A stretch of 32,000 nt of DNA from Geotalea uraniireducens Rf4 (GTDB taxonomy: Bacteria; Desulfobacterota; Desulfuromonadia; Geobacterales; Geobacteraceae): assembly GCF_000016745.1 (NCBI RefSeq), contig NC_009483.1, forward strand, positions 4,440,001-4,472,000, read 5' to 3'. Under the pieces are notes generated by a model. That model was given only the letters and a program-made list of their open reading frames with translations, made no database searches and was not told where the DNA came from. The position numbers and the translations under genes were made by a program. Shown here piece by piece: positions 15,618-31,286 of the stretch. Numbering within the stretch: position 1 is the first letter of the stretch; every line of letters starts with the position of its first letter.

Positions 15618-16629
15618 CTATAAAACTGACTGGATCATTTAGTGCGTGTTTGTGTTCGTTTATAGAAGACATTGGCATATGAAAAGTGCACTTACGGCAA
15701 TATCGGGGAACAGCAGAGTTAAGATCAATCAATTTATGGTACTTTTCACTATTACACATATCTAGCAATGACATATTAACTATATTACCCAGATGAAATT
15801 CAGGAACTCTATCGTAATCATCACATGGGCAATAAGAAATATCACCATTGGAAAAAACCTGCAGGGCTATCACTGGTATCAAGCAATGATCTATGACGAA
15901 TTTGTTGTCCAACCATTCTGCATCAAACGGCAATTTAGTTGAGGTGTCCAGAATGTTCCAATTGGCATATTTTGTTACTTTATGATGTTTTATATTTTTG
16001 GACTTCAAGTTATTAATTATCCAATTATCAAAATCATGATCTGACCTGTTTTTCAATAATCTAAAACCCAGTTCTATTTTTGAACAATCTTCGACAGAGG
16101 ACAATATTCTGTTTACGCCGTCAACCATTTTATGATAATTATCTGTTCTAGTCATTAACTTGTATTCTTCTTGGTCAATTCCATATATTGATATCATTAT
16201 TTTATTAACATTATTTGTTATATATTTAATTGAACTAACAGGTAAATCACCAGCCATAATCGCATTGGTCGTAAAACTAATAGACGTTATGTTTTCGTAT
16301 TTTCTTGCGATTTTTATTCTGTCAATTAAATACTTATCAAGTAACACGTCACCAACAACCGGTGTTAAAGAAAGACAACCACCACCCATTTCGCTATAGC
16401 TTTTAAGTACTTTGTCAAATAGATCACACGACATAGTAGTTTTAGTTCTTTTCATATAAGAATAAGCACAGACTATGCAATTGTTATTGCATATATTAAC
16501 GGTCTCGCATATCAACATAGCAGGTCTATATCTGCCATTAAATCCAATATAATCGGCTATTGATGAGGACAACCCCGTTACTCTCATTATTTCGTGCACT
16601 ATTAATGATGTCATGTTATTTGCTACCAT
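15610..16629 (-). CDS. Radical SAM protein with a C-terminal Cys-rich (SPASM/twitch-like) region
   Basis: The CxxxCxxC motif is CNNNCIVCAY. The C-terminal cysteines are SYCPCDDYD ... DMCNSEKY ... RYCRKCTF. Confidence 0.85.
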   Translation of the reverse strand: MVANNMTSLIVHEIMRVTGLSSSIADYIGFNGRYRPAMLICETVNICNNNCIVCAYSYMKRTKTTMSCDLFDKVLKSYSEMGGGCLSLTPVVGDVLLDKYLIDRIKIARKYENITSISFTTNAIMAGDLPVSSIKYITNNVNKIMISIYGIDQEEYKLMTRTDNYHKMVDGVNRILSSVEDCSKIELGFRLLKNRSDHDFDNWIINNLKSKNIKHHKVTKYANWNILDTSTKLPFDAEWLDNKFVIDHCLIPVIALQVFSNGDISYCPCDDYDRVPEFHLGNIVNMSLLDMCNSEKYHKLIDLNSAVPRYCRKCTFHMPMSSINEHKHALNDPVSFIGG

Positions 16630-17369
16630 TTATTGTTTTCTTCATATTCCAAAGAAATAAGCAATTCACCGGCATTCTTTTTAAAGACATCTACATGCCT
16701 ATCAGTAAAATAATTTCGCCAGTCACCAACAACCCCTTTTCTTACGAAAGTATTATGTTTATATGCTTTACCTAGTTCTTTTTTCATGTTTTCTTTTGTA
16801 AATGCATTAACGCCTTTTATTATTGAATCATCGTCTTGCGAAACATTAATATGCCCGTAGATATCTTTTAATACAGAAAAAGCATCAACTATTAATTCTT
16901 CATACTTGAATGCTACAGTGTCGGTTTCCAGCCAACTCTCAACAAAAGCTGACCATTCCTTTGAAACCATATCGACGTAATCATCAAACGGAATGTTAAA
17001 ATCATCAATAATGCCATTTTTTACGCAAAAATCCTTTTCAAAGAAGTATTTTGAAACAATGACATCTCGGCCATCTCGTATTAAATGTACAAACTTTGCA
17101 GGAATCCTATGCCGGGCAGAATCCGGAAAGTCATGACTTTTGATAATACATGAGTCAGGCAAACCTAGAGAACTTGCATCAGTATACCAAGGGTGCTTAC
17201 TCGCATCATATCCATTTTCAGCTATATTTTCTGATATGTAAATGTCTCTTCTCGGCAGATTGAGACTATGGGCGAGCATACTGACAAGCCATGTACCGCC
17301 GGACTTCGGATATTCCACGACTATTATTTTGCCGACACCATGGTCATTACCAGTCATTTTTATTTTCAT
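16623..17369 (-). CDS. Sulfotransferase (PAPS-dependent family)
   Basis: The 5'-PSB-like loop is EYPKSGGTWLVSML, with IIKSHDF (candidate catalytic His), LIRDGRDVIVSKYF and RKGVVGDWRNYFT. The start is uncertain: candidate ATGs are at 17396, 17369 and 17357. The track start at 17471 would overlap wzt by 125 nt. Confidence 0.8.
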   Translation of the reverse strand: MKIKMTGNDHGVGKIIVVEYPKSGGTWLVSMLAHSLNLPRRDIYISENIAENGYDASKHPWYTDASSLGLPDSCIIKSHDFPDSARHRIPAKFVHLIRDGRDVIVSKYFFEKDFCVKNGIIDDFNIPFDDYVDMVSKEWSAFVESWLETDTVAFKYEELIVDAFSVLKDIYGHINVSQDDDSIIKGVNAFTKENMKKELGKAYKHNTFVRKGVVGDWRNYFTDRHVDVFKKNAGELLISLEYEENNKW

Positions 17370-19482
17370 ATCCTGTCTCAAGGAGTAATTCACCATATTT
17401 AAGCTTAAAATATTCTTTAACTTTTGGAGTAAAGTAGTTTTGCCAATCACCTGCAACTCCCTTCCTTTCATGGGCGGTTATATCTTCAACTCCGATTTTT
17501 CTACCACCTGTTAATTTTTCGAATCTATTTTTAATAATAACCTGCTCCAACAATTCAGGTTTCACTGAAAGTAGACATTTTTCAATCAAAACTTTTTGAA
17601 GTATTGCCACATCATCCTTCAGCAGGTCTTCATATCTAATAAGATCCTCTCCTGCATCAAGCCAGGATTTCTGAATATTTGCACTTAAATAAAGCCATTC
17701 ATCAATCAGATAAATCAACCCCTCTTCCAAACTCATAGAAACTAGGTTATCCCTGTAATTTGCAATGGTTGATGATAACACACCATGGCTAACCTTAAGA
17801 CTGAAATAACCAGAGATCAAGGTGTCTCGGAGATCACGTATAATGACAAAACGACGCCACAAAACAGGAAGCTTAACGCTCTCAAACTGCTCCTTTGTTA
17901 CGTAAACAGTTGGGTAAACCATACCCTCTCCAATTGGCTCGTTCAAGAAATGAGCTATCCCAAGCTTTGAATCAACGTACAAATCGGGAACCGCTTCCTT
18001 GAGAATCTTCTTAATCCATTGTGACCCAGCTTTCCAATGTGTTACATGGAGTATCGTCGGCATTTGAGTCCTCGTTTCTTCCGGTAGTCGCACATAGTTG
18101 CCTTTACGGTGAACCGTTGTGCCTGCATTTCCAGGCATATTACATATACCCGCGTGCAAACTAGCACTGTGCCCATCTTGCAGAGGCTTTTGAACCACTG
18201 TAAAACCGCCTACTGCCGATAGATGACATAGGCGCAATGTTTTTGCTTGAGTATTCGAAGGATGAGAATAAAGCCTATCGTCATAATCTTTCTTGCTTAA
18301 TGCTGACAAGCCCATGTCAATGGTGTACTCCCCTGGAGCAATGTCCAACACCACATCAAATCTGATGCGCACCCATTCCCCTTGAGGGACATATTCTGGT
18401 AGTACCAAGTTGTCATAGTGCAATAGATTCTTTCCGTGCACCACGACATTCCTTTCATTCTTTATGATAAAACCACCGATTGGGATCTCAATCGCCTCGT
18501 TCAACATAAATTCGCAAAAAATGCTTAAAGTACTTCCCTGGTAGAACAACTTTGTAGCTACACCGTTTTCGTTACACAGAGCGACTCCTGAGCAACAGGC
18601 AATACCATTTGATACTACATCAACCTTGGTAATATCAGAAAATTGGCTCACGTGGGGCCAGTAAAAAGTCACATCGTTGGTATCACCCTCTCCATCGGGG
18701 TGTATAAATGTTTGGGAAACATTATCCACATAATTTGCTAACCGCTCATGCTGTTGAACAAGGAGATAGCGCTTAACGGCTTCTGGTGATTTACCGAAAT
18801 ACTCCACTCTATTATCGTTGAGCAATAATGCCCGTTGACAGAACTGGACTACGTCCCCCATACCATGTGTAACAAAAAGAATAGAGACACCCTTATCTCT
18901 TAAATCTTCCAGTTTTCTATAGCATTTTTGCTGGAAAAATACGTCCCCAACCGATAAAGCTTCATCAACAATCAAAATTTGGGGTTCAACAATTGTTGCA
19001 ACTGAAAATGCAAGCCTGACAAACATTCCGCTTGAATAACTCTTTACCGGTTGGTTAACAAATGTACCAATATCAGCAAAAGAGAGAATATCATCCAGCC
19101 TTGCATCCATCTCCTCCCTGGTGTAACCCATCAAGGTACCGTTGAAATAGATGTTCTCAATACCGGTCAACTCGGGATTAAACCCCGCGCCAAGCTCCAG
19201 CAATGCAGAAATCTTGCCATTGACCGTCACATTGCCGCTCGTCGGGGTCAAAACGCCGGTGATGATCTTCAACAGCGTAGATTTGCCGGAACCGTTCTTG
19301 CCGATGATCCCGACAGTCTCGCCCTTCTTTATCTCAAAACTCACGTCATTGAGCGCATAAAAGTCTTTGTGATACTTTTTGCCGAAGGGGTTAACAGACT
19401 CTTTCAGACGATCAAGGGGGGTGTCGTAGAGTTTGTAGATCTTTGTGAGGTTTTGGACGGATATTGCGATGTCGTTGCTCAT
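17347..19482 (-). CDS. wzt: O-antigen/polysaccharide ABC transporter ATP-binding protein Wzt with a carbohydrate-binding module and a fused C-terminal sulfotransferase-like domain
   Basis: NBD: Walker A GKNGSGKST, signature YSSGM, Walker B ILIVDE (about 18748-19482). A beta-rich Wzt_C-like segment lies at about 18240-18660. The C-terminal roughly 230 aa (about 17350-18045) contain HVTHWKAGSQWIKKIL, IIRDLRDTLISGYFS and RKGVAGDWQNYFT, which parallel the downstream sulfotransferase. Confidence 0.9.
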   Translation of the reverse strand: MSNDIAISVQNLTKIYKLYDTPLDRLKESVNPFGKKYHKDFYALNDVSFEIKKGETVGIIGKNGSGKSTLLKIITGVLTPTSGNVTVNGKISALLELGAGFNPELTGIENIYFNGTLMGYTREEMDARLDDILSFADIGTFVNQPVKSYSSGMFVRLAFSVATIVEPQILIVDEALSVGDVFFQQKCYRKLEDLRDKGVSILFVTHGMGDVVQFCQRALLLNDNRVEYFGKSPEAVKRYLLVQQHERLANYVDNVSQTFIHPDGEGDTNDVTFYWPHVSQFSDITKVDVVSNGIACCSGVALCNENGVATKLFYQGSTLSIFCEFMLNEAIEIPIGGFIIKNERNVVVHGKNLLHYDNLVLPEYVPQGEWVRIRFDVVLDIAPGEYTIDMGLSALSKKDYDDRLYSHPSNTQAKTLRLCHLSAVGGFTVVQKPLQDGHSASLHAGICNMPGNAGTTVHRKGNYVRLPEETRTQMPTILHVTHWKAGSQWIKKILKEAVPDLYVDSKLGIAHFLNEPIGEGMVYPTVYVTKEQFESVKLPVLWRRFVIIRDLRDTLISGYFSLKVSHGVLSSTIANYRDNLVSMSLEEGLIYLIDEWLYLSANIQKSWLDAGEDLIRYEDLLKDDVAILQKVLIEKCLLSVKPELLEQVIIKNRFEKLTGGRKIGVEDITAHERKGVAGDWQNYFTPKVKEYFKLKYGELLLETGYENKNDW

Positions 19483-19505
19483 TATTGTTTTCCGCGAAGT
19501 GGCGT

Positions 19506-19668
19506 TACGTGAGTAGTGAGTCGTGAGCAGTAAGTGGTAAAGGCAATTTCGTAAGTCGTAAATCGTAAGTGCCGTGAGTCGTTAATCGTAAGTAGTTAGG
19601 CGTCAATTCTCTTATTTCTTACTTCTCACGGTATTCTTCTCACGTCTCACGGCCGTAACAACTTACGT
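19506..19668. repeat. Heptamer-based palindromic array with no cargo gene: GTRAG-type units, then complementary CTYAC-type units
   Basis: The left arm is cgtgagt agtgagt cgtgagc agtaagt ... cgtaagt cgtaaat cgtaagt. The right arm is cttactt ctcacgg ... ctcacgt ctcacgg ... acttacg. It fills the spacer between mazF and wzt. Confidence 0.9.
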
Positions 19669-19679
19669 CGAAACAGCCC

Positions 19680-20009
19680 TTACAATTCCAGCCACGCCTT
19701 TAGTGAGGCATTGAGTCTCTGCAAGTCTTTTTTTGAAATGCTACCGACCTTCCGCCTTATCAATGCAATATCAACGAGAACACATCCTCGCTTTATCGCT
19801 GATTCTACATTCAACCCGGCCGCCTTCGAATCTTCGAGTACGAATTCTCCATTACAAAGATTACCGGTCTTGCTGGTGATCGGGACAAGGAATAGATCCG
19901 CATATTTCCCCTGGCCTGAGGCGACGATAACCGCCGGCCTGACCTTGGTAGTCTTCAAATCGGTAAAAGGATAGGGGAGTAGAATTATATCTCCTTTAGA
20001 GAAGTTCAT
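19680..20009 (-). CDS. mazF: Type II toxin, MazF/PemK family (mRNA interferase)
   Basis: MNFSKGDIILLPYPFTDLKTTKVRPAVIVAS is the typical PemK N-terminal pattern. It overlaps the upstream antitoxin gene by 14 nt. Confidence 0.8.
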   Translation of the reverse strand: MNFSKGDIILLPYPFTDLKTTKVRPAVIVASGQGKYADLFLVPITSKTGNLCNGEFVLEDSKAAGLNVESAIKRGCVLVDIALIRRKVGSISKKDLQRLNASLKAWLEL

Positions 20010-20244
20010 TGTAGATATCATCCTCTTCGTTATCCCAAACTTTTTTCAGAGATCTTTCGCTCAAGAGTTGCCAGTACTGTTTATCGGAAGCGGTGGAAGC
20101 ACCCCTTTCCTTCTGGTACTTCTGAGCAAGAAACTCGATAAAGTCCAGCGCTTCCCTGCGGGCAGCCGGAGGAAGAGAACTAATCTGCCTGTCAATACTG
20201 CCCACTGCCGATATTGGTTTTTTGATGCTTGTCGTTCCAGGCAT
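19996..20244 (-). CDS. Cognate antitoxin (small acidic C-terminus, DUF2281-like)
   Basis: MPGTTSIKKP...REALDFIEFLAQKYQ...WDNEEDDIYNELL. The RBS GAGGAG lies 7 nt upstream of the ATG at 20244. Its position directly 5' of mazF supports the call. Confidence 0.65.
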   Translation of the reverse strand: MPGTTSIKKPISAVGSIDRQISSLPPAARREALDFIEFLAQKYQKERGASTASDKQYWQLLSERSLKKVWDNEEDDIYNELL

Positions 20245-20267
20245 CGCGAATCTCCTCATTTCAAAAA

Positions 20268-20422
20268 CAGTGAGTCGTTAGTAATAAGTCGTAAGGGCTC
20301 ATTATTCACTTCTCACAGTTTACGGAATTTCTTCTCACTTCTCACTTCTCACTTCTCACTTCTCACTTCTCACTTCTCACTTCTCACTTCTCACTTCTCA
20401 CTTCTCACTTCTCACTTCTCAC
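20268..20422. repeat. Heptamer array: short GTRAG-type arm, then 13 perfect copies of CTTCTCA (20331-20421)
   Basis: I counted the units directly. The stop codon of the adjacent four-helix-bundle gene is supplied by the array (gtg aga agt gag aag TGA on the minus strand). Confidence 0.95.
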
Positions 20423-20761
20423 GGCTTTTACCGATTTGATCAATCCCAGCAGCATTTTCTTAACATCATACAATTTTTCAAGCTGGATTGTCTCTATAAA
20501 TTTCAGTCTTTGAACAAGAAGAAGTTGGGTCTCAAGTTCAGCAATAGACCCGAGGGCAATATAGAGAAACTGAATGAACTCCTTACCATAATTACGCCCC
20601 GCACCTTCAGCAATATTGGAAGGGATTGAAACGGCGGACCTTCGAATCTGACTCGTCAAGCCATAGAGCTCAGACTGGGGGAGTCGGTAAGTTATTTCAT
20701 AGACATCTACAACAAGGTCCATGGCTTTCTGCCAAACATGGAGATCCTTATGAGTCTTCAT
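20405..20761 (-). CDS. Four-helix-bundle protein (23S rRNA intervening-sequence protein / Avd-like family), copy 1
   Basis: [82 protein letters not shown] is the family signature. The start was chosen by analogy with copy 2 ([11 protein letters not shown]). Upstream ATGs at 20776 and 20803 are also possible. Confidence 0.85.
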
Positions 20762-20791
20762 CCCTTCATTGTTCATGTGGTTAGTTTTCTC

Positions 20792-20845
20792 CTCACAACT
20801 CACAACTCACAACTCACAACTCACAACTCACAACTCACAACTCAC
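20792..20845. repeat. Heptamer array: 7 perfect copies of CTCACAA plus one degenerate unit
   Basis: I counted units starting every 7 nt from 20792 to 20840. It lies immediately 5' (in gene orientation) of four-helix-bundle copy 1. Confidence 0.95.
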
Positions 20846-20898
20846 GATTCAAAGCCTATACAACTTACGACTCACTTCTAACGATTCACGGCCCTTAC
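20846..20898. repeat. 53-bp dispersed repeat, copy 1 (partner at 24334-24386)
   Basis: gattcaaagcctatacaacttacgactcacttctaacgattcacggcccttac versus gattcaaagccgttacaactcacaactcacttctaacgattcacagcctttac gives 47/53 identical by hand alignment, in the same orientation. Copy 1 overlaps the wzm stop codon. Confidence 0.85.
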
Positions 20899-21707
20899 AG
20901 CACGTCAGCAAAATGCGGCCTGAGCCTCCGGAAAACCACTGCCCCCAAAATGAAGATGCAGCCGGTTACAATCCAGTAGTAAAGGGTAAGCATGTAGTGC
21001 TGCTCCCAGAACCAGACCTTATAGATGAAACTTTCCCGGTAGCCCTCCACCAGGTAATAGACCGGGTTGAGCTTGATCAGGTTCGCGTATTTGGCCGGGA
21101 GGATCTTGGCGGACCAGAAGATGGGGGTGAGCCAGAAGGCGAACTGGAGGACCATGGCCACCAGCTGCCCCACATCGCGGAGGAAGACCACCAGTGACGA
21201 GGTGAGCCAGGAGAGCCCCAGCAGCAACACTATTGCAGCGAAGAGGTAGTAGAACACTTGGAGGTAGTGAAGGTCCGGCGGATAGCCGTAGAGGATAGAC
21301 ATGATGAAGATGATGGCGATGAAGAAGCTGTGGATAATGAGGGCCGAGAGGATCTTGACGATGGGGAGCATGCCGATGCTGAAGACCACCTTCTTCAGGA
21401 GGAAGCTGTTGTCGATGATGGACATGGTTGCGCTCTGCAGACACTCGCTGAAGAAGAACCAGGGGATGATGCCGGTCATCATCCAGAGGACGAAAGGGTA
21501 GTCTGCCTGGGGCTGGGACTTGAAGCCGACCTGGAAGACGAACCAGAGGATGACGATGTAGATGGTCGGGTGAACGAAGGCCCACAGTATCCCCAGGTAG
21601 GAGCCGAGGTACTTGGTCTTGAAGTCACGCTTGGCCAGCTCCAGGATCATGTGCCGACGGGACCAGAGCTCCGTGAGAAAATTGGAAAACATCTTCAATG
21701 CTTGCAT
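20895..21707 (-). CDS. wzm: O-antigen/polysaccharide ABC transporter permease (ABC-2 type)
   Basis: 270 aa with about 6 hydrophobic segments. The start RRHMILELAKRDFKTKYLGSYLGILWAFVHP is the conserved ABC-2/Wzm N-terminal motif. Confidence 0.9.
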   Translation of the reverse strand: MQALKMFSNFLTELWSRRHMILELAKRDFKTKYLGSYLGILWAFVHPTIYIVILWFVFQVGFKSQPQADYPFVLWMMTGIIPWFFFSECLQSATMSIIDNSFLLKKVVFSIGMLPIVKILSALIIHSFFIAIIFIMSILYGYPPDLHYLQVFYYLFAAIVLLLGLSWLTSSLVVFLRDVGQLVAMVLQFAFWLTPIFWSAKILPAKYANLIKLNPVYYLVEGYRESFIYKVWFWEQHYMLTLYYWIVTGCIFILGAVVFRRLRPHFADVL

Positions 21708-21941: not shown

Positions 21942-22226
21942 TCATGCGGCCATCAGCCTTTCGACCTTCAGGTCTTTCCGTTTCTGCTCGGCCAGCGAAA
22001 GGTCGTACTGAACCTGCTGGGTCAACCAGCTTTCAGGTGTTGTATCGAATGCGATGGACAAGCGAATCGCCATCTCCGGGCTTATCCCGGCATGACCGTT
22101 CAATAGCTCGGAAAGGGCCTTGCGGGAAACTCCAAGGGCCTTTGCCGCCTGGGTGACGGAAATGCCGAGGGGCTTGATGCAAAGTTCCCGGATCACCTCT
22201 CCGGGATGGGGTGGGTTGTGCATCAT
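21942..22226 (-). CDS. higA: HigA-family antitoxin (XRE-type HTH)
   Basis: [54 protein letters not shown] is the canonical HigA pattern. Confidence 0.85.
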
Positions 22227-22238
22227 GGTATTTCTCCT

Positions 22239-22382
22239 TTAATGGTAATCCAGGTAGTCGACATCCAAAACGTCCTTCCCTTCAATCCTGAAAACGACTC
22301 GCCAGTTGCCACTGACATCCACAGACCAAAACCCGTCAAAATCTCCGCTCAGGCCATGCAACCTGAGGCCGGGAAGATTCAT
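22239..22382 (-). pseudogene. higB: N-terminally truncated HigB-like toxin (47 codons remain)
   Basis: The minus strand reads MNLPGLRLHGLSGDFDGFWSVDVSGNWRVVFRIEGKDVLDVDYLDYH*, which matches the C-terminal half of HigB killer proteins (...LPGxRLHxLKGDxxGxWSxxVxGNWRxxFxF...DYH). No matching N-terminal half appears in any frame upstream. The fragment is below the ORF-track size cutoff. Confidence 0.6.
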
Positions 22383-22630
22383 GTCTCTCGGTTAAATCGT
22401 AACCCGACACGTTACACATTGCAATGGTTATTTTCCTTCACTCTTCGCAGGTTTTACCGATCCTCGTATTGCCTTCAGTTCATGACTTTCAGTGTTAATC
22501 CGTGGCCAAATGAATAGCTTTCAATCTTTTTTTATGGGACACTGATCTTCATGATCCCCCTGTGTCAGGATAGTTGTCGCCTCTCTTCCGAACTTTTGTG
22601 TTAACCTGCGGGGCAACAGAGAGAGGGACC

Positions 22631-23155
22631 ATGGCCACCAAATATTCCGAAGAATTCAAGTCGAGCATTATTGCCAGGCTTCTGCCTCCGCATAATGTCA
22701 GCGTTCCTGACATGGTAAAAGAGACCGGGGTTCCTAAAGACACCCTGTACACTTGGAGGAATCAATACCGCAACAGGCAGGTTAATGCCGAGGCGAGCGG
22801 AAATCATCCGGCAGCCAGCCTAAACAACGAAGAGAAGTTGGCCATCGTCATCGAATCCGCCAGTCTCACTGAAGTTGAACTGGGTGAATATTGCCGACGC
22901 AAGGGACTCTACCCTGAGCAGATCGCCGGTTGGAAGAACGGCTTCGTACTCGGATCATCTGCCCCCCTCAACAAGGCCGAACGCGAGCAAATGAGGGAAC
23001 AGACAGCGACCATTAAGCAGCTTGAGAAAGAGCTGAACCGCAAGGATAAAGCATTGGCCGAGACTGCAGCCCTGCTGATTCTTCAAAAAAAGTTCCAGGC
23101 GCTCTGGGAGGAGCCCGAGGCAGAAAAATCGACCTCCCGGCGCGCCAAGAACTGA
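22631..23155 (+). CDS. IS3 transposase OrfA (HTH plus leucine-zipper part)
   Basis: MATKYSEEFKSSIIARLLPPHNVSVPDMVKETGVPKDTLYTWRNQY. The RBS gagagaggga lies before the ATG at 22631. The track start at 22574 is probably too early. Confidence 0.85.
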   Translation: MATKYSEEFKSSIIARLLPPHNVSVPDMVKETGVPKDTLYTWRNQYRNRQVNAEASGNHPAASLNNEEKLAIVIESASLTEVELGEYCRRKGLYPEQIAGWKNGFVLGSSAPLNKAEREQMREQTATIKQLEKELNRKDKALAETAALLILQKKFQALWEEPEAEKSTSRRAKN

Positions 23156-24192
23156 TTGCCCTGATAGACGAAGCCTGTGCCGGTGGTGCACGTCTGGGTA
23201 GGGCCTGCGAGGCTGTTCTTCTTTCGCCCCGCACCGTGCAACGTTGGCATCTTCCTGACGAAATACCCTCAGATGGGCGCAAGGCCGCGTCTCGCGATCG
23301 GGCACCGGCCAATAAGCTTTCTGAAACGGAGCGGGTCACAATCCTGGCGACTGCCAACCAGGAGAAATTCGCCAGCCTGCCGCCCAGCCAGATAGTTCCT
23401 AAATTGGCCGACGACGGGATCTTCCTCGCTTCTGAGTCAACCTTCTACCGAACCTTACGGGCAGAGAAGCAGCTGGCACACCGGGGCCGTACCAAGGCTG
23501 CAAGACACAAGCGCCCAGATGCCGTGCTGGCCACCGAGCCGAACCAACTCTGGAGCTGGGATATTACATACTTGAGCACTACCGTTAAGGGGCTGTACTT
23601 TTACCTCTACCTGATCATGGATGTCTTTAGCCGCAAGATCGTCGGTTGGGAAGTCTATGCGGAGGAATCCGCCGATCATGCCGCCATAACGTTGCGCAAG
23701 GCCTATCTGCGTGAAGGCGTCGCCGGTCGCACCCTGATACTTCACTCCGACAACGGCTCGCCCATGAAAGGCGCTACCATGTTGGGAACTATGCAGAAGC
23801 TTGGGGTAATGCCGTCCTTCAGTCGGCCCTCTGTCAGCAATGACAACCCATACTCAGAGTCACTGTTCAAAACCTTGAAGTATCACCCCGGCCTACCGGA
23901 GAAACCTTTCGATACGTTGGACGAGGCACGGCACTGGGTTGCCGGTTTCCAGCATTGGTACAACGAGGAACATCAGCACAGTGCCATAAAATTCGTAACG
24001 CCGGGTCAGCGCCACCGGGGCGATGACAAAGAGATACTCAACAAACGAGCGCTACTTTACGCGATGGCGAGGGCCGCAATGCCGGAACGATGGTCGGGTG
24101 CTTGCCGGAACTGGACTCGACCAGCAGAAGTTTCCTTGAACCCCCAAAAATCGGCTCAGAACGGTACGCCGTCTCAAGCCAGAGCAGCATAG
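22631..24192 (+). CDS. IS3 transposase OrfAB fusion, made by a programmed -1 frameshift
   Basis: After a -1 slip at A AAA AAG the reading continues ...QKKVPGALGGARGRKIDLPARQELIALIDEACAGGARLGRACEAVLLSPRTVQRWH... into the track ORF 23236-24192. The DDE residues are in WSWDITYL, LHSDNGSPM and NDNPYSESLFKTLK. Confidence 0.8.
23085..23092 (+). other. A7G slippery heptamer for -1 ribosomal frameshifting in the IS3 transposase
   Basis: The sequence is cttcAAAAAAAGttcc. The orfB frame is open upstream of this point, and the orfA stop lies 60 nt downstream. Confidence 0.75.
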
Positions 24193-25227: not shown

Positions 25228-25574
25228 GTGTAAAACCTCCTGTTTATGTGTCTTTGACTTTGTCATTTATTCTGGGACTGGAGATCGGGAACAGATTACT
25301 GATCCTGCTTATTTCTAATCCCGGCTGCCTGGCCCCTGTCATTTAACCGCATGCTTCTCAATTTAGCGTAAAAACTTCTGCACCACCCAACGGGCCGCTC
25401 GGAGTTCTCAAGACCTTAATCATCTTGCCCCAACGCCTGATTTACAACTTTTATGAATGTACCATAAAACAATTATTAAAGAACTTCAACTATTTTTACT
25501 TTTAATCGTCATTTCAAAGATACAATTTTAACGGCACGACTAGAAATTATGCAAAATAGGGGCCAATTAAAAGC

Positions 25575-25778
25575 GGTCGATGGTCGGCGGTCGGTGGTTG
25601 ACTGCCGACTGCCGACTGCAGTTCTATGGTCGGCGGTCGGCGGTTTCACTGTTTACGGCATTCTTCTCACTTCTTACGGCTACGGCCATTAAAGTCGGTC
25701 GGCAGTCGACAGTCGACAGTCGACAGTCGACAGTCGATGGCTGAACTTCGGCCGATGGTCGATGGTCGGCGGACTGTG
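25575..25778. repeat. Composite heptamer array with no cargo gene: GGTCGRY units, TGCCGAC units, a CTYAC segment, 5 copies of CAGTCGA (25703-25737), then GGTCGRY units
   Basis: Read directly from the sequence. TGCCGAC/GACTGCC is complementary to GGCAGTC/CAGTCGA, which gives nested dyad symmetry. No ORF is present. Confidence 0.9.
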
Positions 25779-26005: not shown

Positions 26006-27400
26006 GTGTCAGGACATCGGTTACCCGGATGTGTCAAGACATCGGTTACCCTTAACGCCCTTTTTTGTGTCAAGACATCGGTTACCTTCATTAGAAATAT
26101 CAGCTACAATGTTCTCTGTGATTTCAACTTGAGGGGAGAACATCCGCATGGAAGAAGAACTCAGGAAACAAGCAGTCCAGCGCCATCTTGCAGGCGAATC
26201 ACCCAAGGCAGTCTATACAAGCCTTGATCGCTCCAAGAAGTGGTTTTTTAAGTGGTTGAACCGGTATCAATCTGGCGCGACTGACTGGTACAAGGAACAC
26301 TCAAGAGCGCCACTTAAAAGACCGTCTGAACTCAGCATCGTAGATAAGGAGATTATTGTCTCCACCAGAAACCGCCTGGACTCGTCACCATTTGCACAGA
26401 TTGGCGTTTCCGCTATCAAGTGGGAGCTGCATAAGCTGGGGTTACCGTTTCGCTCTGACAGCACCATTAACCGGACCCTGAAGCGGGAAGGACTCGTTAA
26501 AAAAAACGAGATATTCCCCCAAAGGGGTCGAGTACCCGTACTTTACCGAAGCCCTGTGCTGCAACAACATCCATCAGATGGATCTTGTTGGCCCCCGCTA
26601 CATCAAGAGTGACGGCAGATTTTACTCGATGAATGTGATTGATCTGTACAGCCATCGGGTCTTCATCGAATCAAATCGCACCAAGGAGGATGACAACATT
26701 GCACAGGGTTTGCTGCGCTGCTGGAAGTCAATGGGGCTTCCCGACTTCCTGCAAATGGACAATGAACTCAGTTTCCGTGGCAGTAACCGCTATCCGAGGT
26801 CACTTGGTCTGGTGCTGCGACTATGTCTCTACTTCGGCGTTCATCCTGTTTTTATCCCTGTTGCGGAACCGTGGCGCGATGGCGTAATAGAGAGCTTCAA
26901 CGATACCTATGACAAAAAGTTTTTTCGCCGCCAGTGGTTCACAAGCTATTCCATGCTCAAGCGGCAAAGCAAGAATTTCCAGCAGTTTCACAACAAGAAT
27001 CACCGTTACAGCTATCTCAAGGGGAAAACGCCACTGGAGGTTATTGAAGCTGACAAATTCAAGCCCTTGACGCTGGGGCCAAATACCAGGATGCCAAAAC
27101 TTGATTTTCTCCCGGACGGCACCATTTCGCTCATTAGATTTATCAGGAGCGATAGAACACTTAACATCTTTGGCGAAAAATTTGAGGTTTCAAAAGACCT
27201 CGTCTATTCATATGTGCGAGCCATGATCGTAACGGAAATTCACACGCTGCAAGTGTACCTGGGTGAAGACTTTGTTCAAAGCTTTGAGTACAGAATGCCT
27301 ACAGAGTTCAGCTCATGAAATAGTATGCATAATCAGGGGGTCGGGTAACCGATGTCCTGACACTTTTTAGAGTTAGGCTTGGGTAACCGATGTCCTGACA
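26006..27400 (+). mobile_element. IS element with an rve/DDE transposase (IS481-like) and multiple terminal repeat copies
   Basis: The 20-nt motif tgtcaRgacatcggttaccc occurs 3 times at the left end (26007, 26032, 26068). It occurs twice inverted at the right end (27343-27362, 27381-27400). An 8-bp direct repeat TTTGACAA flanks the element (25998-26005 and 27401-27408). Confidence 0.8.
26148..27318 (+). CDS. Transposase (HTH plus integrase-core DDE), split by a frameshift at an A8 run (26499-26506)
   Basis: Track ORFs 26148-26612 and 26578-27318 join if one A is removed: ...REGLVKKKTRYSPKGVEYPYFTEALCCNNIHQMDLVGPRYI... The DDE residues are in HQMDLVG, LQMDNELSF and RDGVIESFN. Confidence 0.75.
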
Positions 27401-27497
27401 TTTGACAACTATTAATTTCTTAACTGTCGGCATTGTCCGCCTCCTGTTGCAAAATGAGCATGGTGAATTCCACTGGGTTTATCGCCACAACGGCACC

Positions 27498-27553
27498 TAG
27501 GATCTGGGATCTGAAAAGTCGGGATCGGGGACCTGGGATCTGGGATCGGTAAC
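27498..27553. repeat. GGGATCT-type heptamer array (3' flank of four-helix-bundle copy 2)
   Basis: taggatctgggatctg...gggatcggggacctgggatctgggatcggtaac. The 20-mer ctgggatctgggatcggtaa (27533-27552) recurs exactly at 27999-28018. Confidence 0.95.
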
Positions 27554-27588
27554 TACTTGTTCTTTTTCCATGCGTATAGATTCTCTGT

Positions 27589-27945
27589 TCATAATTGCTT
27601 TGATTTGTAATGTTTTATAAGACCACTTATGAGCTTTTTGACTGTGACTATTTTAGCAAGTAATTGGTTAATTTCGCCAGAAAAATCCAAACGTTGGGCA
27701 ATAATTAATTGAGTCTCAGCCTCAGCAGCGGAACCCAAAGCAACATGTAAAAACTGAATAAACTCTTTTTCTGAATTCCTCGCCGCTCCTTCTGAGATAT
27801 TCGATGGAATCGAAACCGCGGCTCTTCTTAATTGGCTGGTTAAACCATAGAGTTCATCCTTCGGGAAATCCTTGGAAATCGCATAAACATCAACAACTAA
27901 ATCCATACTGATTTTCCATGCATCAAGCTCTTTATGGTCCTTCAT
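27589..27945 (-). CDS. Four-helix-bundle protein (23S rRNA IVS protein / Avd-like family), copy 2
   Basis: [86 protein letters not shown]. The RBS AAGGAGA lies 5 nt upstream. Confidence 0.9.
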
Positions 27946-27967
27946 TTCATCTCCTTGAAAGCGGTGA

Positions 27968-28018
27968 ACTGGAATCAGGGATCTGGAATCTAAAAAGGCT
28001 GGGATCTGGGATCGGTAA
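27968..28018. repeat. GGGATCT-type heptamer array (5' flank of copy 2), in direct orientation relative to 27498-27553
   Basis: ctggaatcagggatctggaatct...ctgggatctgggatcggtaa. Confidence 0.95.
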
Positions 28019-28023
28019 AAACT

Positions 28024-28247
28024 GTTCCCTGTTCCCTGTTCCCTGTTCCCTGTTCCCTGTTCCCCGTTCCCCGTTCCCCGTTCCCCGTTCCCCGTTCCCC
28101 GTTCCCCGTTCCCCGTTCCCCGTTCCCCGTTCCCCGTTCCCAGTTCCCAGTTCCCAGTTCCCAGTTCCCAGTTCCCAGTTCCCAGTTCCCAGTTCCCAGT
28201 TCCCAGTTCCCAGTTCCCAGTTCCCAGTTCCCAGTTCCCAGTCCCCA
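28024..28247. repeat. 32-unit heptamer array in three homogeneous blocks: (GTTCCCT)5 (GTTCCCC)11 (GTTCCCA)15 plus one GTCCCCA
   Basis: I counted the blocks unit by unit: 28024-28058, 28059-28135, 28136-28240. The reverse complement TGGGAAC differs from the TGGGATC unit of the neighbouring arrays at one position. Confidence 0.95.
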
Positions 28248-28251
28248 GCCT

Positions 28252-28584
28252 TTACGGCCTGAAATAATCGGGCTCATCATGGCCATCTACCCATATTGCC
28301 AGAAGATGGGCAATATCACCAGCCACCAGATAGCGCAAATGCAGCCGACGATAGGCAATTGGCATAACAGCCAGATGAAATGCAATCTCCCTGTCGCCAA
28401 TAACCTTTCTGCGGATCGGCCAGGCATGGGGATGATTATCGATTGTGGCAAGGATGGTGGTCATTGCCGACGGAAGGGCGATAAACGCCAGAGGGCTTGC
28501 CTTACGCAGATAACTGCTCAAATCAGAGTATGCCGCCTCGAATGTCGGTGTTACCCGTATTCTGGAATGACGTCTGGTCTTCAC
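28252..28584 (-). CDS. RelE/ParE-superfamily toxin
   Basis: 110 aa with the ParE-like pattern (...[20 protein letters not shown]...HPHAWPIRR...[21 protein letters not shown]). It has an ATGA overlap with the upstream RHH gene. The family call is by eye only. Confidence 0.55.
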
Positions 28585-28871
28585 GCATTCTTTCTCAGCA
28601 ATGAGTCAGACAGTGCCGCACCCTGGCGGGAATCCTCTTCTATCATGGATACAAGGCGGTCAGCCGGTCCGGACAGGCCTTTTTCGATATCACCGAGCGA
28701 CTGCATGGTCATAAGATCGGCGCGGCGTTCCCGCATATCTTCCTCAACAATTGCTCTGGCGCCGGCCTTGAAGAGCCATTGCGGTGTACGATCATGAACA
28801 CGGCAGTACTCATTGATGATGGCAGCCTCAGCCTCCTCAAGGGCAACATTGATCTGTAATCGCTTTTTCAC
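28581..28871 (-). CDS. Ribbon-helix-helix (CopG/ParD-like) antitoxin
   Basis: I prefer a GTG start at 28869-28871, preceded by TAGGAGG and a 6-nt spacer, giving (M)KKRLQINVALEEAEAAIINEYCRVHDRTP... (RHH strand-helix pattern). The track ATG at 28949 adds 26 implausible Cys-rich residues. Confidence 0.6.
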   Translation of the reverse strand: MKKRLQINVALEEAEAAIINEYCRVHDRTPQWLFKAGARAIVEEDMRERRADLMTMQSLGDIEKGLSGPADRLVSMIEEDSRQGAALSDSLLRKNA

Positions 28872-28953
28872 GGCACACCTCCTAGCATTGCAAGCAATTC
28901 TATCACAACCATGCAAGAAACACCAGAGATTGAGCAGTTCACTCGCCAATTTC

Positions 28954-29046: not shown

Positions 29047-30894
29047 TCACAGCAACACCCCCATCTCCTCCATTTTCGCCACGATACGCCTGGCTGCCTC
29101 TTTCAGGTCATCAGACTCGAGAAAGTTCAGATCGGTATTCTCCGGCGCCTCCCCCTCGGCAAAGGCCATATGCACGGAAATGACCTGGTGGGGATGGACA
29201 AGTGTGCGGATGATCTGGTGATCGGCCCGGGCAAAGGTATTGGTGGTGGAAACCACGATCTGCCCCGCCCTGAGCAGGATCTGCGCCACTTCGCCGAAAC
29301 GGCGCACCATTTCGTCCTTATCCTCCTCGGTTACATCTAGCCCCAGGCCAAATAGCAGGTTTTTCCCGTCAAGGAGATACACCTGCCGACCGCTGTTGAA
29401 AAGCCGCCGCTCCAGGTGTCGGGCAAGGCGCGCCTTGCCGGTGCCGCTTTCGCCGGTGAAGAGGATGATGCCGGGATTGTGGCCGTTGCGCTGCACCCGT
29501 TCGCCGAGCTGAACCTCGCCGCGACGCCAGGCGATGTCGCGCTGCCTCGCTTCCCTGCGGAACGCTTCCTGCTCGTCGCTCAGCACTTCCGTGACTATGC
29601 CGCCGCCCCACACGTCATAACCGTCCACCACCACAAACCGGCCGGTGACGTCGCATTCTGCATAGCAGTCCAGGGCGATCGGCTTCCTGGTCCTGATGGT
29701 CACTTCCGCCACGTCGTTCAGGTCAACGCGGTCCTTTACCGCAACCGGGTCGAGGCTGGCGGCATCGATGATGCGATGGATCGTTTCCAGCTCCATCTCC
29801 ACCGCACAGGTTGCCAGCCTTAAGCCGTACCTGCGGCCGCGAACAAGGGGGTTCTTCCCCATCCAGAACAGGTTGGCGCGAAAACGGTCCGACACCTCCG
29901 GCGCCGACTCTTTTAACGAGGCGATCTCGCCCCGTTCGACGAAAATCTGCTCGTCGAGGGTAAAGCCGGTCGATTTGCCGGCAACTGCCGCCAATGGGAG
30001 ATGGGGAACATTGAAGGCCTCGATGGTCTTGACGACGGCGGTTTTATTGGAGGGTGAAAACACCACGGTATCGCCGACCCGCAGGACTCCGGCAGCAAGC
30101 CGGCCGGCAATGATGCGGCGGGCGTCGAACTTGTAGACATCCTGCACCGGAAAGCGGAGCGGCAGGTCTTCGCCGGTCGGCAGCTTCTCAAAGAGACCGA
30201 GGCTTTCCAATACCGTAGACCCCCGATACCATGGCATGGCATCACTGCGCCGCACCACGTTGTCGCCGTTCCTGGCGCTGGCTGGGATAAACTGCTGCGG
30301 CGAGACGCCCACCCCCTTCAGGAATGCCCCGTACTCTTCGACGATGGCGTTAAAGACCTGCTCGTCATAGCCGACCAAGTCCATCTTGTTGACGACCACC
30401 GCAATCTGCCGGATCCCCAGGAGACTGAGCATGTAGCCGTGGCGCCGCGACTGTTCGCGCACCCCTTCGGCAGCATCGATGATCAGCACCGCCGCCTCGG
30501 CCCTGGCAGCGCCCGAAATCATGTTTTTCAGGAACTCCTTATGCCCCGGCGCATCTATTATTATATACTGCCGGTTTTCCCAGGAAAAAAAGGTGCGGGC
30601 GGTATCGATGGTAATCCCCTGCTCCTGCTCTTCGAGAAATGCATCAAAGAGGAAGGCGTACTCAAATGCCTTTCCCTGTTGCTCGCAGATGGCGCGGACC
30701 TTCTCCAGCTGCCCATCGGGAAGGGAATCGGTGTCCGCGTAGATGCGCCCGAGAAGGGTGGACTTGCCGTGGTCCACGTGACCGACTATTACTACGGTGA
30801 AGGCGGTCGATGGTGGATGGTGGATGGTCGATGGTGGATGGTCGATAGTCGTTGGTGGATGGTCATTTGTTGATGGGCTCACGCTATTTTTCAT
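29047..30894 (-). CDS. cysNC: Sulfate adenylyltransferase subunit 1 (GTPase CysN) fused to a short, divergent APS-kinase-like domain
   Basis: The G-domain motifs are [18 protein letters not shown] and NKMD. The C-terminal 141 aa read [46 protein letters not shown]...RRFGEVAQ. The first roughly 30 codons are encoded by a heptamer array. Confidence 0.85.
30805..30874. repeat. GGTCGAT/GGTGGAT heptamer array (about 10 units) lying inside the 5' end of the cysNC reading frame
   Basis: ggtcgat ggtggat ggtggat ggtcgat ggtggat ggtcgat agtcgtt ggtggat ggtcatt tgttgat. On the minus strand it translates as ...[21 protein letters not shown]... Confidence 0.95.
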
Positions 30895-31255
30895 ATTTGA
30901 CTCTCAGTGATTTTATGAGCGCATTGAGCTGCTTGCGGATGACTACGGTTTCTCCGAGTAGTGTCTCAGCTTCAACTGCATACCCCAGTTTTTGTGCAAC
31001 AATCAATTGGGTCTCAAGTTCGGCAGCAGAACCACCGGCAATGGATAAGAATCGGATAAACTCCCGATTGCCTTGCCTTCCTGCCCCTTCGGCAATGTTC
31101 GAAGCGATTGAGACCACTGACCGCTTAATCTGGTCGGCCAGACCAAAGTGCTCATCCAGAGGGAATTTTTGAAGTATTCCATAAACAGACACTGCCAGAT
31201 TGACTGAACGCTGCCAGACATCAAGTTCCTTATAGTCCCTTATTTTCTCCACCAT
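30884..31255 (-). CDS. Four-helix-bundle protein (23S rRNA IVS protein / Avd-like family), copy 3
   Basis: [90 protein letters not shown]. Its last codons (aaa tAT GAA AAA TAG) contain the cysNC ATG. Confidence 0.9.
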
Positions 31256-31286
31256 TCACCGCCTTTACCTTTACCATACCTTTACA

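Follow-up and report, generated by a model that had tools for sequence, protein, structure and literature searches.

The 1,412-nt spacer that separates wzm from wzt in the window (the whole stretch of DNA analysed here, 32,000 nucleotides long) is probably a single composite element, in which an S23p-type four-helix-bundle (4HB) gene is preceded by heptamer arrays with a GTRA core and followed by complementary arrays with a TYAC core, and whose transcript would undergo cleavage by RNase III. The parts of this reading are held with different strength: the identification of the element, in structure and in evolution, is very likely correct, and the RNase III step, proposed by analogy with the intervening sequences (IVSs) of rRNA, is put forward only tentatively. 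The element has the layout of an S23p-bearing 23S rRNA IVS, placed in an mRNA operon. We know of no function assigned to the S23p/IVS protein family since the 1990s, nor of a settled origin of the rRNA intervening sequences; free-standing copies, which combine the IVS layout (arms in inverted orientation, heptamers upstream of the gene, a conserved GTRA core) with a place inside ordinary operons, offer a tractable model, since their closest named relatives are Geotalea and Geobacter species.

The wzm and wzt Genes and the Content of the Spacer

The wzm gene (20895-21707, minus strand), which encodes an ABC-2 permease (ABC2_membrane PF01061, 70.7 bits), is the conserved left flank of the spacer; wzt (17347-19482, minus strand) carries ABC_tran, Wzt_C and Sulfotransfer_1 domains (Pfam; PF00005 89.3 bits, PF14524 55.9 bits), its product being an NBD followed by Wzt_C and by a C-terminal sulfotransferase fusion. 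The combination of an ABC-2 permease with an ATPase bearing the Wzt_C carbohydrate-binding domain is that of a Wzm/Wzt polysaccharide ABC exporter. As originally predicted, the two genes lie ~1.4 kb apart on the same strand, the spacer running from 19483 to 20894 rather than to 20898; the predicted compositional break between wzm and the rest of the cluster is also found, wzm being GC-rich (GC 0.549, GC3 0.856) as compared with the NBD of wzt (0.444 and 0.52) and its sulfotransferase domain (0.386 and 0.35). Wzm is 98.9% identical to the protein of relative L085, 90% to that of L004 and 88% to that of Geotalea sp. SG265; the closest full-length relatives of Wzt reach only 65% identity, and the fusion is present in them too.

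Besides one PF05635/TIGR02436 4HB gene and a DUF2281-PemK/MazF pair, the spacer contains heptamer arrays, two of them perfect and the others, of the GTRAG/CTYAC type, degenerate. Four arrays and a four-helix-bundle cassette had been listed in the original prediction as independent features; they turn out to be one unit, namely the arms and the ORF of an S23p/IVS-type element. The 4HB gene (4HB#1; 20405-20776, minus strand, GC 0.425) encodes 123 aa of the S23p/23S rRNA-IVS protein family and belongs to PF05635 and TIGR02436, scoring above the curated cutoffs across the whole ~110-aa domain (23S_rRNA_IVP PF05635 130.9 bits, GA 33.8; TIGR02436 128 bits, cutoff 24); it also matches NF008911 (167 bits, cutoff 137). 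Its translation likely starts from the ATG of position 20776 rather than from the GTG of position 20803. The protein is related to solved pentameric 4HB structures (PDB 2GSC, XCC0516, E 3.2e-22; 2RLD, E 1.2e-5) and is 95% identical to the copy found at the same position in L004. Identity with the Avd protein of diversity-generating retroelements (DGRs) was considered and rejected (DivGenRetAVD 23.3 bits vs a cutoff of 80; no RT domain among the window ORFs scanned), and PADLOC returned no defence-system match for the 4HB gene, the toxin-antitoxin (TA) pair or the neighbouring small ORFs.

Arms, Arrays, and the Nested Toxin-Antitoxin Pair

All components of the element are read on the minus strand. 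It opens with an outer 5′ arm of degenerate GURAG heptamers (20846-20894; part of A1; inverted repeats I1 and I3), followed by the (UUGUGAG)7.7 array (20792-20845), which has a GTGA core, lies just upstream of 4HB#1 and ends 16 nt before its ATG; the homologous position in L004 holds (CGTGAAT)7.7. A "53-bp repeat" that had been described at 20841-20893 occurs only once in the window and is the degenerate GTRAG arm itself, inverted-complementary to 20270-20295 (85%) and to 19565-19599 (77%). Downstream, the first units of the (GUGAGAA)13.1 array (20331-20422) encode, as read from the sequence, the final codons and the stop codon of 4HB#1, and an array of identical unit is found at another locus of L085. 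TRF reports the two arrays as (CTCACAA)7.7 and (CTTCTCA)13.1, both 100% perfect, in agreement with the 7 and 13 copies previously counted. The inner 3′ arm (20262-20330) consists of a GUGAG tail and of the CUYAC arm B2, with I3 85% complementary to 20864-20889 and the GTRAG arm placed at 20270-20295 by inverted-repeat analysis. Beyond mazF lie the GURAG arm C1 (19607-19679; CTYAC run at 19608-19667), whose homologue in L004 follows the 4HB gene immediately on its 3′ side, and the CUYAC array C2 (19490-19606), which is the outer 3′ arm, stops 8 nt short of the start codon of wzt and contains degenerate 7-mers at 19509-19535 and 19549-19593 (TRF); by blastn, window 19650-19509 matches L004 1450-1745.

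The module placed between these arms had been called mazEF-like, a description which holds for the toxin and for the overlap, not for the antitoxin. The toxin (19680-20021, minus strand, 113 aa) belongs to the PemK/MazF family (PemK_toxin PF02452 37.3 bits, cutoff 23.1) and is overlapped by 26 nt by a small antitoxin ORF upstream, as in type II TA systems of the MazF/PemK family; the antitoxin (19996-20259, minus strand, 87 aa) is of the DUF2281 type (PF10047 34.6 bits), with a weak VapB match in NCBIfam (28 bits, below cutoff), and profile searches gave no match of the MazE (AbrB/SpoVT) type. The DUF2281-PemK/MazF module is nested within the 3′ arm region of the 4HB element: L004 has wzm, arm, array and 4HB gene at 86.6% nt identity, followed by the C1/C2 hairpin, and ~700 nt including mazEF are extra in the window. 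Among the contexts of MazF homologues, the junction is shared by those of L101 and L102 alone, in each of which mazE and a truncated mazF precede wzt, and the antitoxin region is 82% identical in nt sequence to L102. Toxin homologues elsewhere (63-68% identity, metagenome contexts) come without arrays and without 4HB genes, so that mazEF is not a fellow traveller of the arrays.

Predicted Stem and Its Possible Role

A1, which comprises the outer 5′ arm and the (UUGUGAG)7.7 array, is predicted to pair with C2 in a duplex of -104 kcal/mol (z -8.1; shuffles -50.8 +/- 6.6); weaker duplexes are predicted for C1 with C2 (-48.8 kcal/mol, z -4.1) and for A1 with B2 (-36.9 kcal/mol, z -5.7), the inner arm B2 being thus able to close a stem round the 4HB#1 ORF. 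MFE and centroid folds of the whole spacer likewise pair its 5′ and 3′ ends (C2 with the 5′ arm). The arms directly flanking 4HB#1 are both GTGAG-sense, and an enclosing stem needs arms 110-135 nt or ~1.2 kb away. Two hallmarks of an IVS are present, i.e. an ORF within terminal inverted repeats capable, in predicted folds, of forming a long stem, and tandem heptamers directly upstream of that ORF; another, insertion within a 23S rRNA helix, is absent, the element sitting between protein genes, and Rfam gave no match, rRNA included, in the whole 32-kb window and in 14 low-coding 4HB loci. Sense and antisense duplexes, compared for signs of selection at the RNA or at the DNA level, are equally stable (47/88, p 0.87), so that DNA rather than RNA could be the level on which the complementarity acts. 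Between 19300 and 22500, promoter- and terminator-like sites are as numerous as in shuffled sequences, with no sign of terminators.

By analogy with rRNA IVSs, the following sequence of events may be proposed. If one transcript covers wzm, the 4HB gene, mazEF and wzt, the ~100-nt arms would form a long imperfect duplex, looping out 1.2 kb; this duplex might be a substrate for an RNase III-type enzyme, as in the rRNA IVSs, and its cleavage would part the mRNA of wzm from that of wzt, leaving a structured end on each and uncoupling their stabilities. Post-transcriptional control of transporter stoichiometry, already suggested for this locus, is plausible in view of the long predicted stem.

The Junction in Relatives and the Exchange of Modules

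The split between wzm and wzt is not a one-off, since the element is common to several relatives. The order wzm-4HB-wzt occurs in L085 and L086, and the 4HB element lies between the two genes or after wzm in L085, L086 and L004; it is thus resident at the wzm-wzt junction in the lineage, and the split is old. A gap between wzm and wzt exists in L003 (1.6 kb), L091 (0.8 kb) and Geomonas L090 (3.5 kb) as well. IS elements and a decayed higB are found near the spacer of the window.

The further proposal that the spacer is a recombination junction is supported by two lines of evidence, i.e. the position of the homology breakpoints and the discordance of Wzm and Wzt identities. All blastn breakpoints against L003, L004, L085 and L102 fall inside heptamer arrays. 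As to the proteins, comparison with the near-identical relative L085 gives 98.9% for HigA and Wzm, 81% for the NBD of Wzt and 32% for its carbohydrate-binding domain, and the identity ranks of Wzm and Wzt NBD disagree (88% and 71% in L003; 67% and 77% in L087, which also has the Wzt-sulfotransferase fusion). Between the same flanks, the window has a second 4HB element (that of 4HB#2, see below) and L085 a PIN gene. Since homology breaks there, the arrays delimit exchangeable modules (4HB genes, TA pairs, the PIN gene and a glycan block led by wzt), and the exchanged block begins with wzt. The array units themselves turn over fast, through collapse and re-expansion, and both unit and copy number differ among close relatives. 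Contigs assembled from short reads break inside the arrays.

The repeat tracts would promote ectopic recombination, swapping the serotype-determining block downstream of the conserved wzm. A concrete mechanism is thereby offered for the way in which surface-glycan loci of Geobacteraceae may be re-assorted, and the assembly breaks at such junctions would find an explanation.

Sister Elements in the Window and across Phyla

The window carries three ORF-plus-inverted-array elements in all. The second (27408-28248, minus strand) is composed of (CUGGGAA)32, of 4HB#2 (27589-27945), whose protein is 91.5% identical to the 4HB protein encoded between wzm and wzt in L085, and of GAUCCCA arrays; the third (30805-31407, minus strand) is composed of GGUCGAU/GGCGGAU arrays, 4HB#3 (30884-31255) and an AUCGACC array, and is inserted between cysD and cysNC, with a flank duplex of -111.7 kcal/mol. 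The cysD-element-cysNC order is also found in Geotalea sp. SG265 and is absent in Geomonas. A (CCCCAGT)10.6 array lies within the window as well.

The association was followed across many phyla in 79 loci, drawn from the best 80 of >600 tblastn matches and hence not a random sample. In this set, period-7 repeats cover, up to 100 nt from a 4HB gene, 22% of the bases, vs 0.5% at 2-5 kb, and they make up 22% of 4HB-adjoining spacers, vs 4% of other spacers; an array is held by 52% of the spacers beside a 4HB gene and by 18% of those elsewhere in the same loci (Fisher p 3e-11), from which it also follows that heptamer arrays are not exclusive to 4HB genes. About one third of the 4HB-gene loci have no array inside 300 nt. 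The units vary by locus, yet upstream and downstream units stay mutual reverse complements: the upstream and downstream flanks of a locus pair better with one another than cross-locus pairs do (median -57 vs -40 kcal/mol, p 1e-16), and 48% of the upstream units have a GTGA/GGGA core and 51% of the downstream ones a TCAC/TCCC core, against 4.5% by chance. Array copy number is the same near and far from 4HB genes (median 4.6 in both cases). A same-strand downstream ORF begins within 150 nt of 77% of the 4HB genes, as judged from crude ORF calls with no control. The literature searched contains no paper that ties free-standing PF05635 genes to flanking heptamer arrays, which is no proof of novelty.

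A wider, rather doubtful generalization can be considered, namely that 4HB genes with polar complementary GTRA/TYAC heptamer arrays might constitute a cross-phylum class of elements, of which 23S rRNA IVSs would be the rRNA-resident subset. Such elements would colonise intra-operon spacers, their arrays would be binding sites of the 4HB pentamer and/or cleavage sites of RNase III, and they would act as portable recombination boundaries, driving the exchange of TA genes and of whole glycan-export blocks.

Alternative Explanations

That a single illegitimate recombination joined a foreign block, wzt plus enzymes, to the native wzm, leaving the TA pair, the 4HB gene and the repeats as unrelated debris of the scar, would account for the compositional break at the spacer, for the drop in identity from Wzm to Wzt, and for the nearby IS elements and decayed higB. 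We regard it as quite unlikely, given that the same ORF-plus-inverted-array design is present in three copies in the window and again across phyla, that wzm-array-4HB is orthologous in L004 and paralogous in L085, that the arrays are mutually complementary far above chance, and that arrays and 4HB gene have largely been shown to be inherited and lost as one unit. An integron-like organization, in which a site-specific recombinase would move the 4HB gene, mazEF and other small genes as cassettes with attC-like hairpins between them, appears very improbable and was rejected as an identity for the locus: neither a tyrosine recombinase nor IntI occurs among the ORFs scanned in the 32-kb window, in which only rve-type IS transposases are seen, and the lone GTTAGGC/GCCTAAC match (19596-19602) is within chance, estimated at ~3 per 1.4 kb on both strands. 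The small genes are, it is true, bounded by imperfect hairpins, the 4HB#2 element and the PIN gene of L085 replace one another in cassette-like fashion, and TA genes are typical cargo of integrons; the hairpins, however, are period-7 arrays of variable length and not attC sites, and the cassettes lie in ordinary operons.

The perfection of two arrays (13 and 7.7 copies), the variation of unit and copy number among close relatives, the ends of short-read contigs in arrays and the heptamer count that differs across Coxiella strains (PMC4990558) all recall contingency tracts, in which slippage would alter a spacing or a structure controlling the expression of the 4HB gene, mazEF or wzt. Such a phase-variation switch is nevertheless improbable, as the arrays are intergenic, neither inside ORFs nor at recognisable promoters, and it leaves unexplained the upstream/downstream complementarity and the tie to 4HB genes. 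The arrays could alternatively be recognition sites: GTRA-core heptamers in RNA or DNA would be bound by the 4HB protein, a pentamer, or else by a factor of the host, which would autoregulate the element or aid its spread, with the stem being secondary. The 4HB family includes Avd, a nucleic-acid-binding pentamer (to which the match is a weak NCBIfam one); a conserved 4-nt core with three variable positions, a strict upstream/downstream polarity, a median array of ~4.6 units and the mildly basic character of the 4HB proteins (pI 8-9) would fit this possibility, which we consider unlikely because copy number is the same in arrays far from 4HB genes and the L003 protein has a pI of 6.5.

Comparison with Known Systems

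The composite IVS-type element favoured here finds its closest counterpart in the S23p-bearing 23S rRNA IVSs of Coxiella burnetii and Leptospira (PMC4990558), with which it shares the PF05635 ORF, the terminal inverted repeats and the upstream heptamers; in Coxiella, the 23S rRNA IVS is excised by RNase III and comprises a 28-bp terminal stem and an S23p ORF, upstream of which lie tandem heptamers whose number varies with the strain (PMC4990558). Unlike those IVSs, the present elements reside in operons (wzm-wzt, cysD-cysNC) and not in helix 45 of 23S rRNA, their arms are heptamer arrays of up to 32 units instead of a unique 28-bp stem, and a TA module is nested in the wzm-wzt element. The 4HB proteins share with the Avd of DGRs, an accessory pentamer, a distant fold or clan, a small size and a mildly basic character; in contrast to what is seen with Avd, the window contains neither a reverse transcriptase nor a TR/VR pair.

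Intergenic heptamer repeats, e.g. CCCCAGT, are known in cyanobacteria as STRR. Intergenic TAACTGA heptamers have been described in Beggiatoaceae and Bacteroidetes (PMC4679880), and the present arrays resemble both types in being tandem, 7-nt and intergenic, often near start codons, and variable among relatives; those repeats are reported without a 4HB link or complementary pairing, whereas the arrays described here come in pairs, have a polarity and go with PF05635 genes. As in the serotype switching of O-antigen/glycan ABC transporters, in which the C-terminal domain of Wzt is serotype-specific, wzm and the NBD of Wzt are conserved, the carbohydrate-binding domain of Wzt and the downstream enzymes diverge, and the variable block is low in GC; here, however, crossover is placed between wzm and wzt, in an array-bounded element, and not in conserved flanking housekeeping genes, and Wzt is fused to a sulfotransferase. 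Finally, like the intercistronic REP/BIME stem-loops, which give the segments of an operon mRNA different stabilities, the element is an imperfect palindromic repeat between genes that are presumably co-transcribed, for which an effect on segmental mRNA decay would be expected; unlike theirs, its arms are 100 nt long, are built of period-7 arrays and enclose 1.2 kb and three genes.

Genes and arrays of the wzm-wzt spacer

The original prediction, that wzm and wzt are held about 1.4 kb apart by a mazEF-like module, a four-helix-bundle gene and heptamer arrays, is as an observation borne out with small corrections only. The minus strand carries every gene of the region: wzm (20895-21707; ABC2_membrane domain), a four-helix-bundle (4HB, S23p) gene of the 23S-rRNA-IVS-protein family (4HB#1, 20405-20776; PF05635 at 130.9 bits, TIGR02436 at 128 bits), a DUF2281 antitoxin of 87 aa (19996-20259), a PemK/MazF toxin of 113 aa (19680-20021) whose gene overlaps that of the antitoxin by 26 nt, and wzt (17347-19482), encoding a 711-aa fusion of ABC ATPase, Wzt_C and a sulfotransferase domain; from the called limits of wzm and wzt, the spacer therefore spans 19483-20894, or 1,412 nt. 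TRF identifies two perfect arrays, (CTTCTCA)13.1 at 20331-20422 and (CTCACAA)7.7 at 20792-20845 (both in plus-strand reading), and degenerate 7-mers at 19509-19593, while a repeat finder adds a CTYAC run (19608-19667) and a GTRAG arm (20270-20295). The supposed 53-bp repeat (20841-20893) occurs only once in the window, being in fact a GTRAG arm of degenerate sequence. The step in composition is confirmed, GC3 falling from 0.86 in wzm to 0.52, 0.42 and 0.35 in the ATPase (NBD), carbohydrate-binding (CBD) and sulfotransferase domains of wzt (0.70 in higA and 0.75 in cysNC).

At the end of wzt, a separately called sulfotransferase ORF (16623-17471) overlaps it by 125 nt, the true start being probably an internal codon; this second sulfotransferase, the upstream cysD/cysNC and the Wzt fusion suggest that the exported glycan is sulfated and that its terminal modification and its export are coupled. 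The Wzt-sulfotransferase architecture of 17347-19482 is found in at least 10 metagenomic proteins (50-66% identity), and the C-terminal fusion partner differs elsewhere, being Methyltransf_21 in Geotalea sp. SG265 (L003 10393-12468) and radical-SAM in the protein P0204. Beyond wzm, higA (21942-22226) is intact; higB (22239-22555) is 5'-truncated, only its C-terminal 47 codons being intact, with ~127 nt of the sequence of the related contig L085 missing.

Arrays as arms of one element

Read along the minus strand, the spacer runs from wzm through a GURAG arm, (UUGUGAG)7.7, the 4HB gene, (GUGAGAA)13 and a CUYAC arm to antitoxin and mazF, a second GURAG arm, a CUYAC array and wzt, the GURAG-type segments (GTRAG in DNA) being complementary to the CUYAC-type ones. 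The outer arms (20898-20786 with 19606-19490) pair at -104.0 kcal/mol, against -50.8 +/- 6.6 for shuffles (z -8.1), and the 5' arm pairs with the inner arm (20297-20262) at -36.9 kcal/mol (z -5.7 versus shuffles); in both the MFE and the centroid fold of the 1,416-nt spacer RNA the two ends are paired and everything between wzm and wzt is looped out. The arrays are thus the arms of one element.

The same layout surrounds the two further 4HB genes of the window. 4HB#2 (27589-27945, within 27408-28248) is preceded by (CUGGGAA)32, that is (GTTCCCA)32, and followed by GAUCCCA (GATCCCA) arrays; 4HB#3 (30884-31255) belongs to an element (30805-31407) inserted between cysD and cysNC, with GGUCGAU/GGCGGAU arrays upstream and a complementary AUCGACC array downstream (duplex -111.7 kcal/mol), and in Geomonas oryzisoli (L090) cysD and cysNC directly adjoin with no 4HB insert. 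At 4HB#3, and likewise in L085, the 4HB stop codon and the start codon of the host gene that follows (the cysNC ATG at 4HB#3) overlap; the G-rich 5' arrays have stop codons in all three frames, and the C-rich 3' array, which reads open in the host-gene frame, yields a translated N-terminal extension (an HPPST-type repeat on CysNC). The translated 3' array keeps translational coupling and bears on how insertion of the element is tolerated.

Several other features lie near these elements. A short ORF after 4HB#2 (ATGA overlap, TAG at ~27500) resembles the N-terminal extension on the L085 wzt. Two overlapping small ORFs at 28252-28949 (122 and 110 aa), laid out like a TA pair and flanked by (CCCCAGT)10.6 and (GTTCCCA)32, have no match in Pfam, NCBIfam or PADLOC. 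In each of two IS copies (22574-24192 and 26148-27318) an HTH ORF precedes an ORF with the rve integrase core; the first copy is missing from the otherwise collinear L085.

The junction in relatives

The best named relatives of Wzm are Geobacteraceae (Geotalea sp. SG265, 88%; Geomonas, ~71%). The contigs L085 and L086 read higB-higA-wzm-4HB-wzt, with HigA and Wzm 98.9% identical to those of the window, and their junction 4HB, which has (ACUGGGA)7 on its upstream side, belongs to the #2 type (protein identity 91.5%). In L004, an orthologous 4HB (95% to #1) stands at the junction, in the order wzm (90%), GURAG arm, (CGUGAAU)7.7, 4HB, GUGAGAA units and a long CUUACG array, downstream of which lie unrelated genes. 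The SG265 locus (L003) has (GUGAGGA)8 and a 258-aa ORF between wzm and a wzt-methyltransferase fusion (gap 1.58 kb), and in L102 wzt is preceded by mazE, a mazF cut short at residue 59, heptamers and a 259-aa ORF, in that order. The two genes adjoin in L088 and L089 (gaps of 13 and 121 nt); they enclose a methyltransferase in L091 and cysC-cysD-cysNC in G. oryzisoli. A secreted protein of ~215-260 aa recurs in this region (L004 2069-2713, L102 960-1739, L003 9272-10048), with the N-terminus MRKMM…AIAAVLAVSAMM in L004 and L102; it has no family match and is absent from the window.

An array lies at every homology breakpoint revealed by blastn. Homology to L004 is unbroken from wzm to 20351, within the GUGAGAA array, and resumes at 19650-19509; the ~700 nt extra in the window hold, besides mazEF and the inner CUYAC arm, more of the array; mazEF thus sits nested within the 3' arm region of an element that was there before it. 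Against L085, homology runs precisely to the wzm stop codon and restarts at wzt codon 3; against L003, it ends 24 nt past wzm and restarts 11 nt before wzt; against L102, it breaks within mazF, at the heptamer run. A PIN-domain gene (L085 230-660) occupies the flanks that in the window hold the 4HB#2 element. (GUGAGAA)n, identical in unit to the spacer array, occurs at another locus of L085. Units turn over rapidly: GUGAGUU and GUGAAUC occupy homologous sites beside proteins 95% identical, and the cluster of unlike short arrays at window 25573-25768 (GCGGTCG, GACTGCC, GTCGACA and others) has as its counterpart at L085 1022-1176 a long (GTGAGAA)n array, so that unit sequence differs at homologous sites. 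Two Logan contigs with identical Wzm (L001, L002) stop ~79 nt beyond the wzm stop codon, in a heptamer array; 4HB-array elements break up short-read assemblies.

It had further been proposed that a foreign wzt block was recombined in, a view to which congruent Wzm and Wzt, or a spacer conserved in the lineage, would be opposed. Identities of Wzm and of Wzt residues 1-235 to the window proteins, compared as ranks and not as a formal tree test, are discordant: 98.9 and 80.9% (L085), 88.1 and 71.2% (L003), 81.7 and 69.7% (L088), 76.7 and 72.4% (L089), 75.2 and 68.8% (L091), 72.1 and 73.8% (L090), 67.1 and 77.4% (L087). L087, lowest in Wzm yet second-best in Wzt, also has the sulfotransferase fusion and a CBD 51% identical, CBD identity being ~30% or lower in all other compared loci. 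These sequence comparisons support the view that a wzt-led block was exchanged independently of wzm; the spacer is in part conserved, the 4HB element being common to relatives, and hence the recombination claim is partly supported.

4HB genes and heptamer arrays across phyla

An alignment of five 4HB proteins was used as tblastn query, and the best 80 of more than 600 matching loci (one genome per species) were retained, spanning Bacteroidota, Nitrospirota, Desulfobacterota, Acetothermia, Omnitrophota, Ignavibacteriota and further phyla. Among these best-matching loci, 306 of 856 tandem repeats have period 7, and such arrays cover 22.4% of the bases up to 100 nt from the 4HB gene, 6.6% at 100-200 nt, ~0.5% at 2-5 kb and 0.4% within the gene. 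An array lies within 300 nt of the gene in 52 of 79 loci, about a third being without one. Spacers adjoining a 4HB gene exceed the remaining intergenic spacers of these loci both in coverage (22% versus 4.1%) and in occupancy (52% versus 18%; odds ratio 5, p 3e-11); as the 18% shows, arrays are not confined to the vicinity of 4HB genes. The unit varies by locus, the downstream one usually being the reverse complement of its upstream partner (AACGGGT/ACCCGTT, AATGAGT/ACTCATT, ACTGGGG/AGTCCCC, AACAGTG/ACTGTTC); the flanks of a 4HB gene pair better with each other than with those of other loci (median -57 versus -40 kcal/mol, p 1e-16). GTGA or GGGA is present in 48% of upstream units and TCAC or TCCC in 51% of downstream units, against 4.5% by chance and 7-8% in the opposite orientation; by this shared polarity and core, the GTRAG/CTYAC motif of the original prediction is a family-wide signature. 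No rRNA was found in the 14 4HB loci of low coding density, and these copies are therefore free-standing. Taken alone, the wzm-wzt split has modest interest; its value is raised by the association of 4HB genes with paired arrays in general, which opens an old orphan family to experiment.

Mechanism and comparison with known systems

The genes wzm, 4HB, mazEF and wzt are probably co-transcribed, since they share one strand and promoter-like or terminator-like sites in the region are not above chance. In such a transcript the arms would fold into a long duplex, and RNase III-type cleavage could part the wzm mRNA from that of wzt. Sense and antisense duplexes do not differ in stability, so a role at the DNA level (cruciform formation, recombination) is equally possible; array-mediated ectopic recombination may have caused the module swaps. 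A DGR Avd is ruled out by the score of 4HB#1 (23 bits, cutoff 80) and the absence of an RT from the window ORFs scanned, and an integron cassette by the absence of an integrase from those ORFs and of attC. The best reading is that an IVS-like S23p element, in which a TA module is nested, lies at a wzm-wzt junction prone to recombination.

Intergenic heptamers have been described in Geobacter metallireducens (PMC2700814) and in Beggiatoaceae, cyanobacteria and Bacteroidetes (PMC4679880) without connection to 4HB genes, and our literature search found no report connecting the two. In Coxiella burnetii, the 23S rRNA intervening sequence (IVS) contains an S23p ORF of the PF05635 family, inverted repeats at its termini, pairing into a 28-bp stem, with excision by RNase III, and, directly upstream of the ORF, two or three tandem heptamers (GACAGAT) in strain-variable number; neither the origin nor the function of IVS and S23p is known according to the same report (PMC4990558). 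The pentameric S23p XCC0516, whose structure has been solved, is a relative of 4HB#1 (2GSC; E 3e-22). The wzm-wzt element resembles the rRNA IVS in every sequence feature tested except its location between protein-coding genes, on account of which it is not classed as one; by analogy, it may nevertheless work like an IVS.
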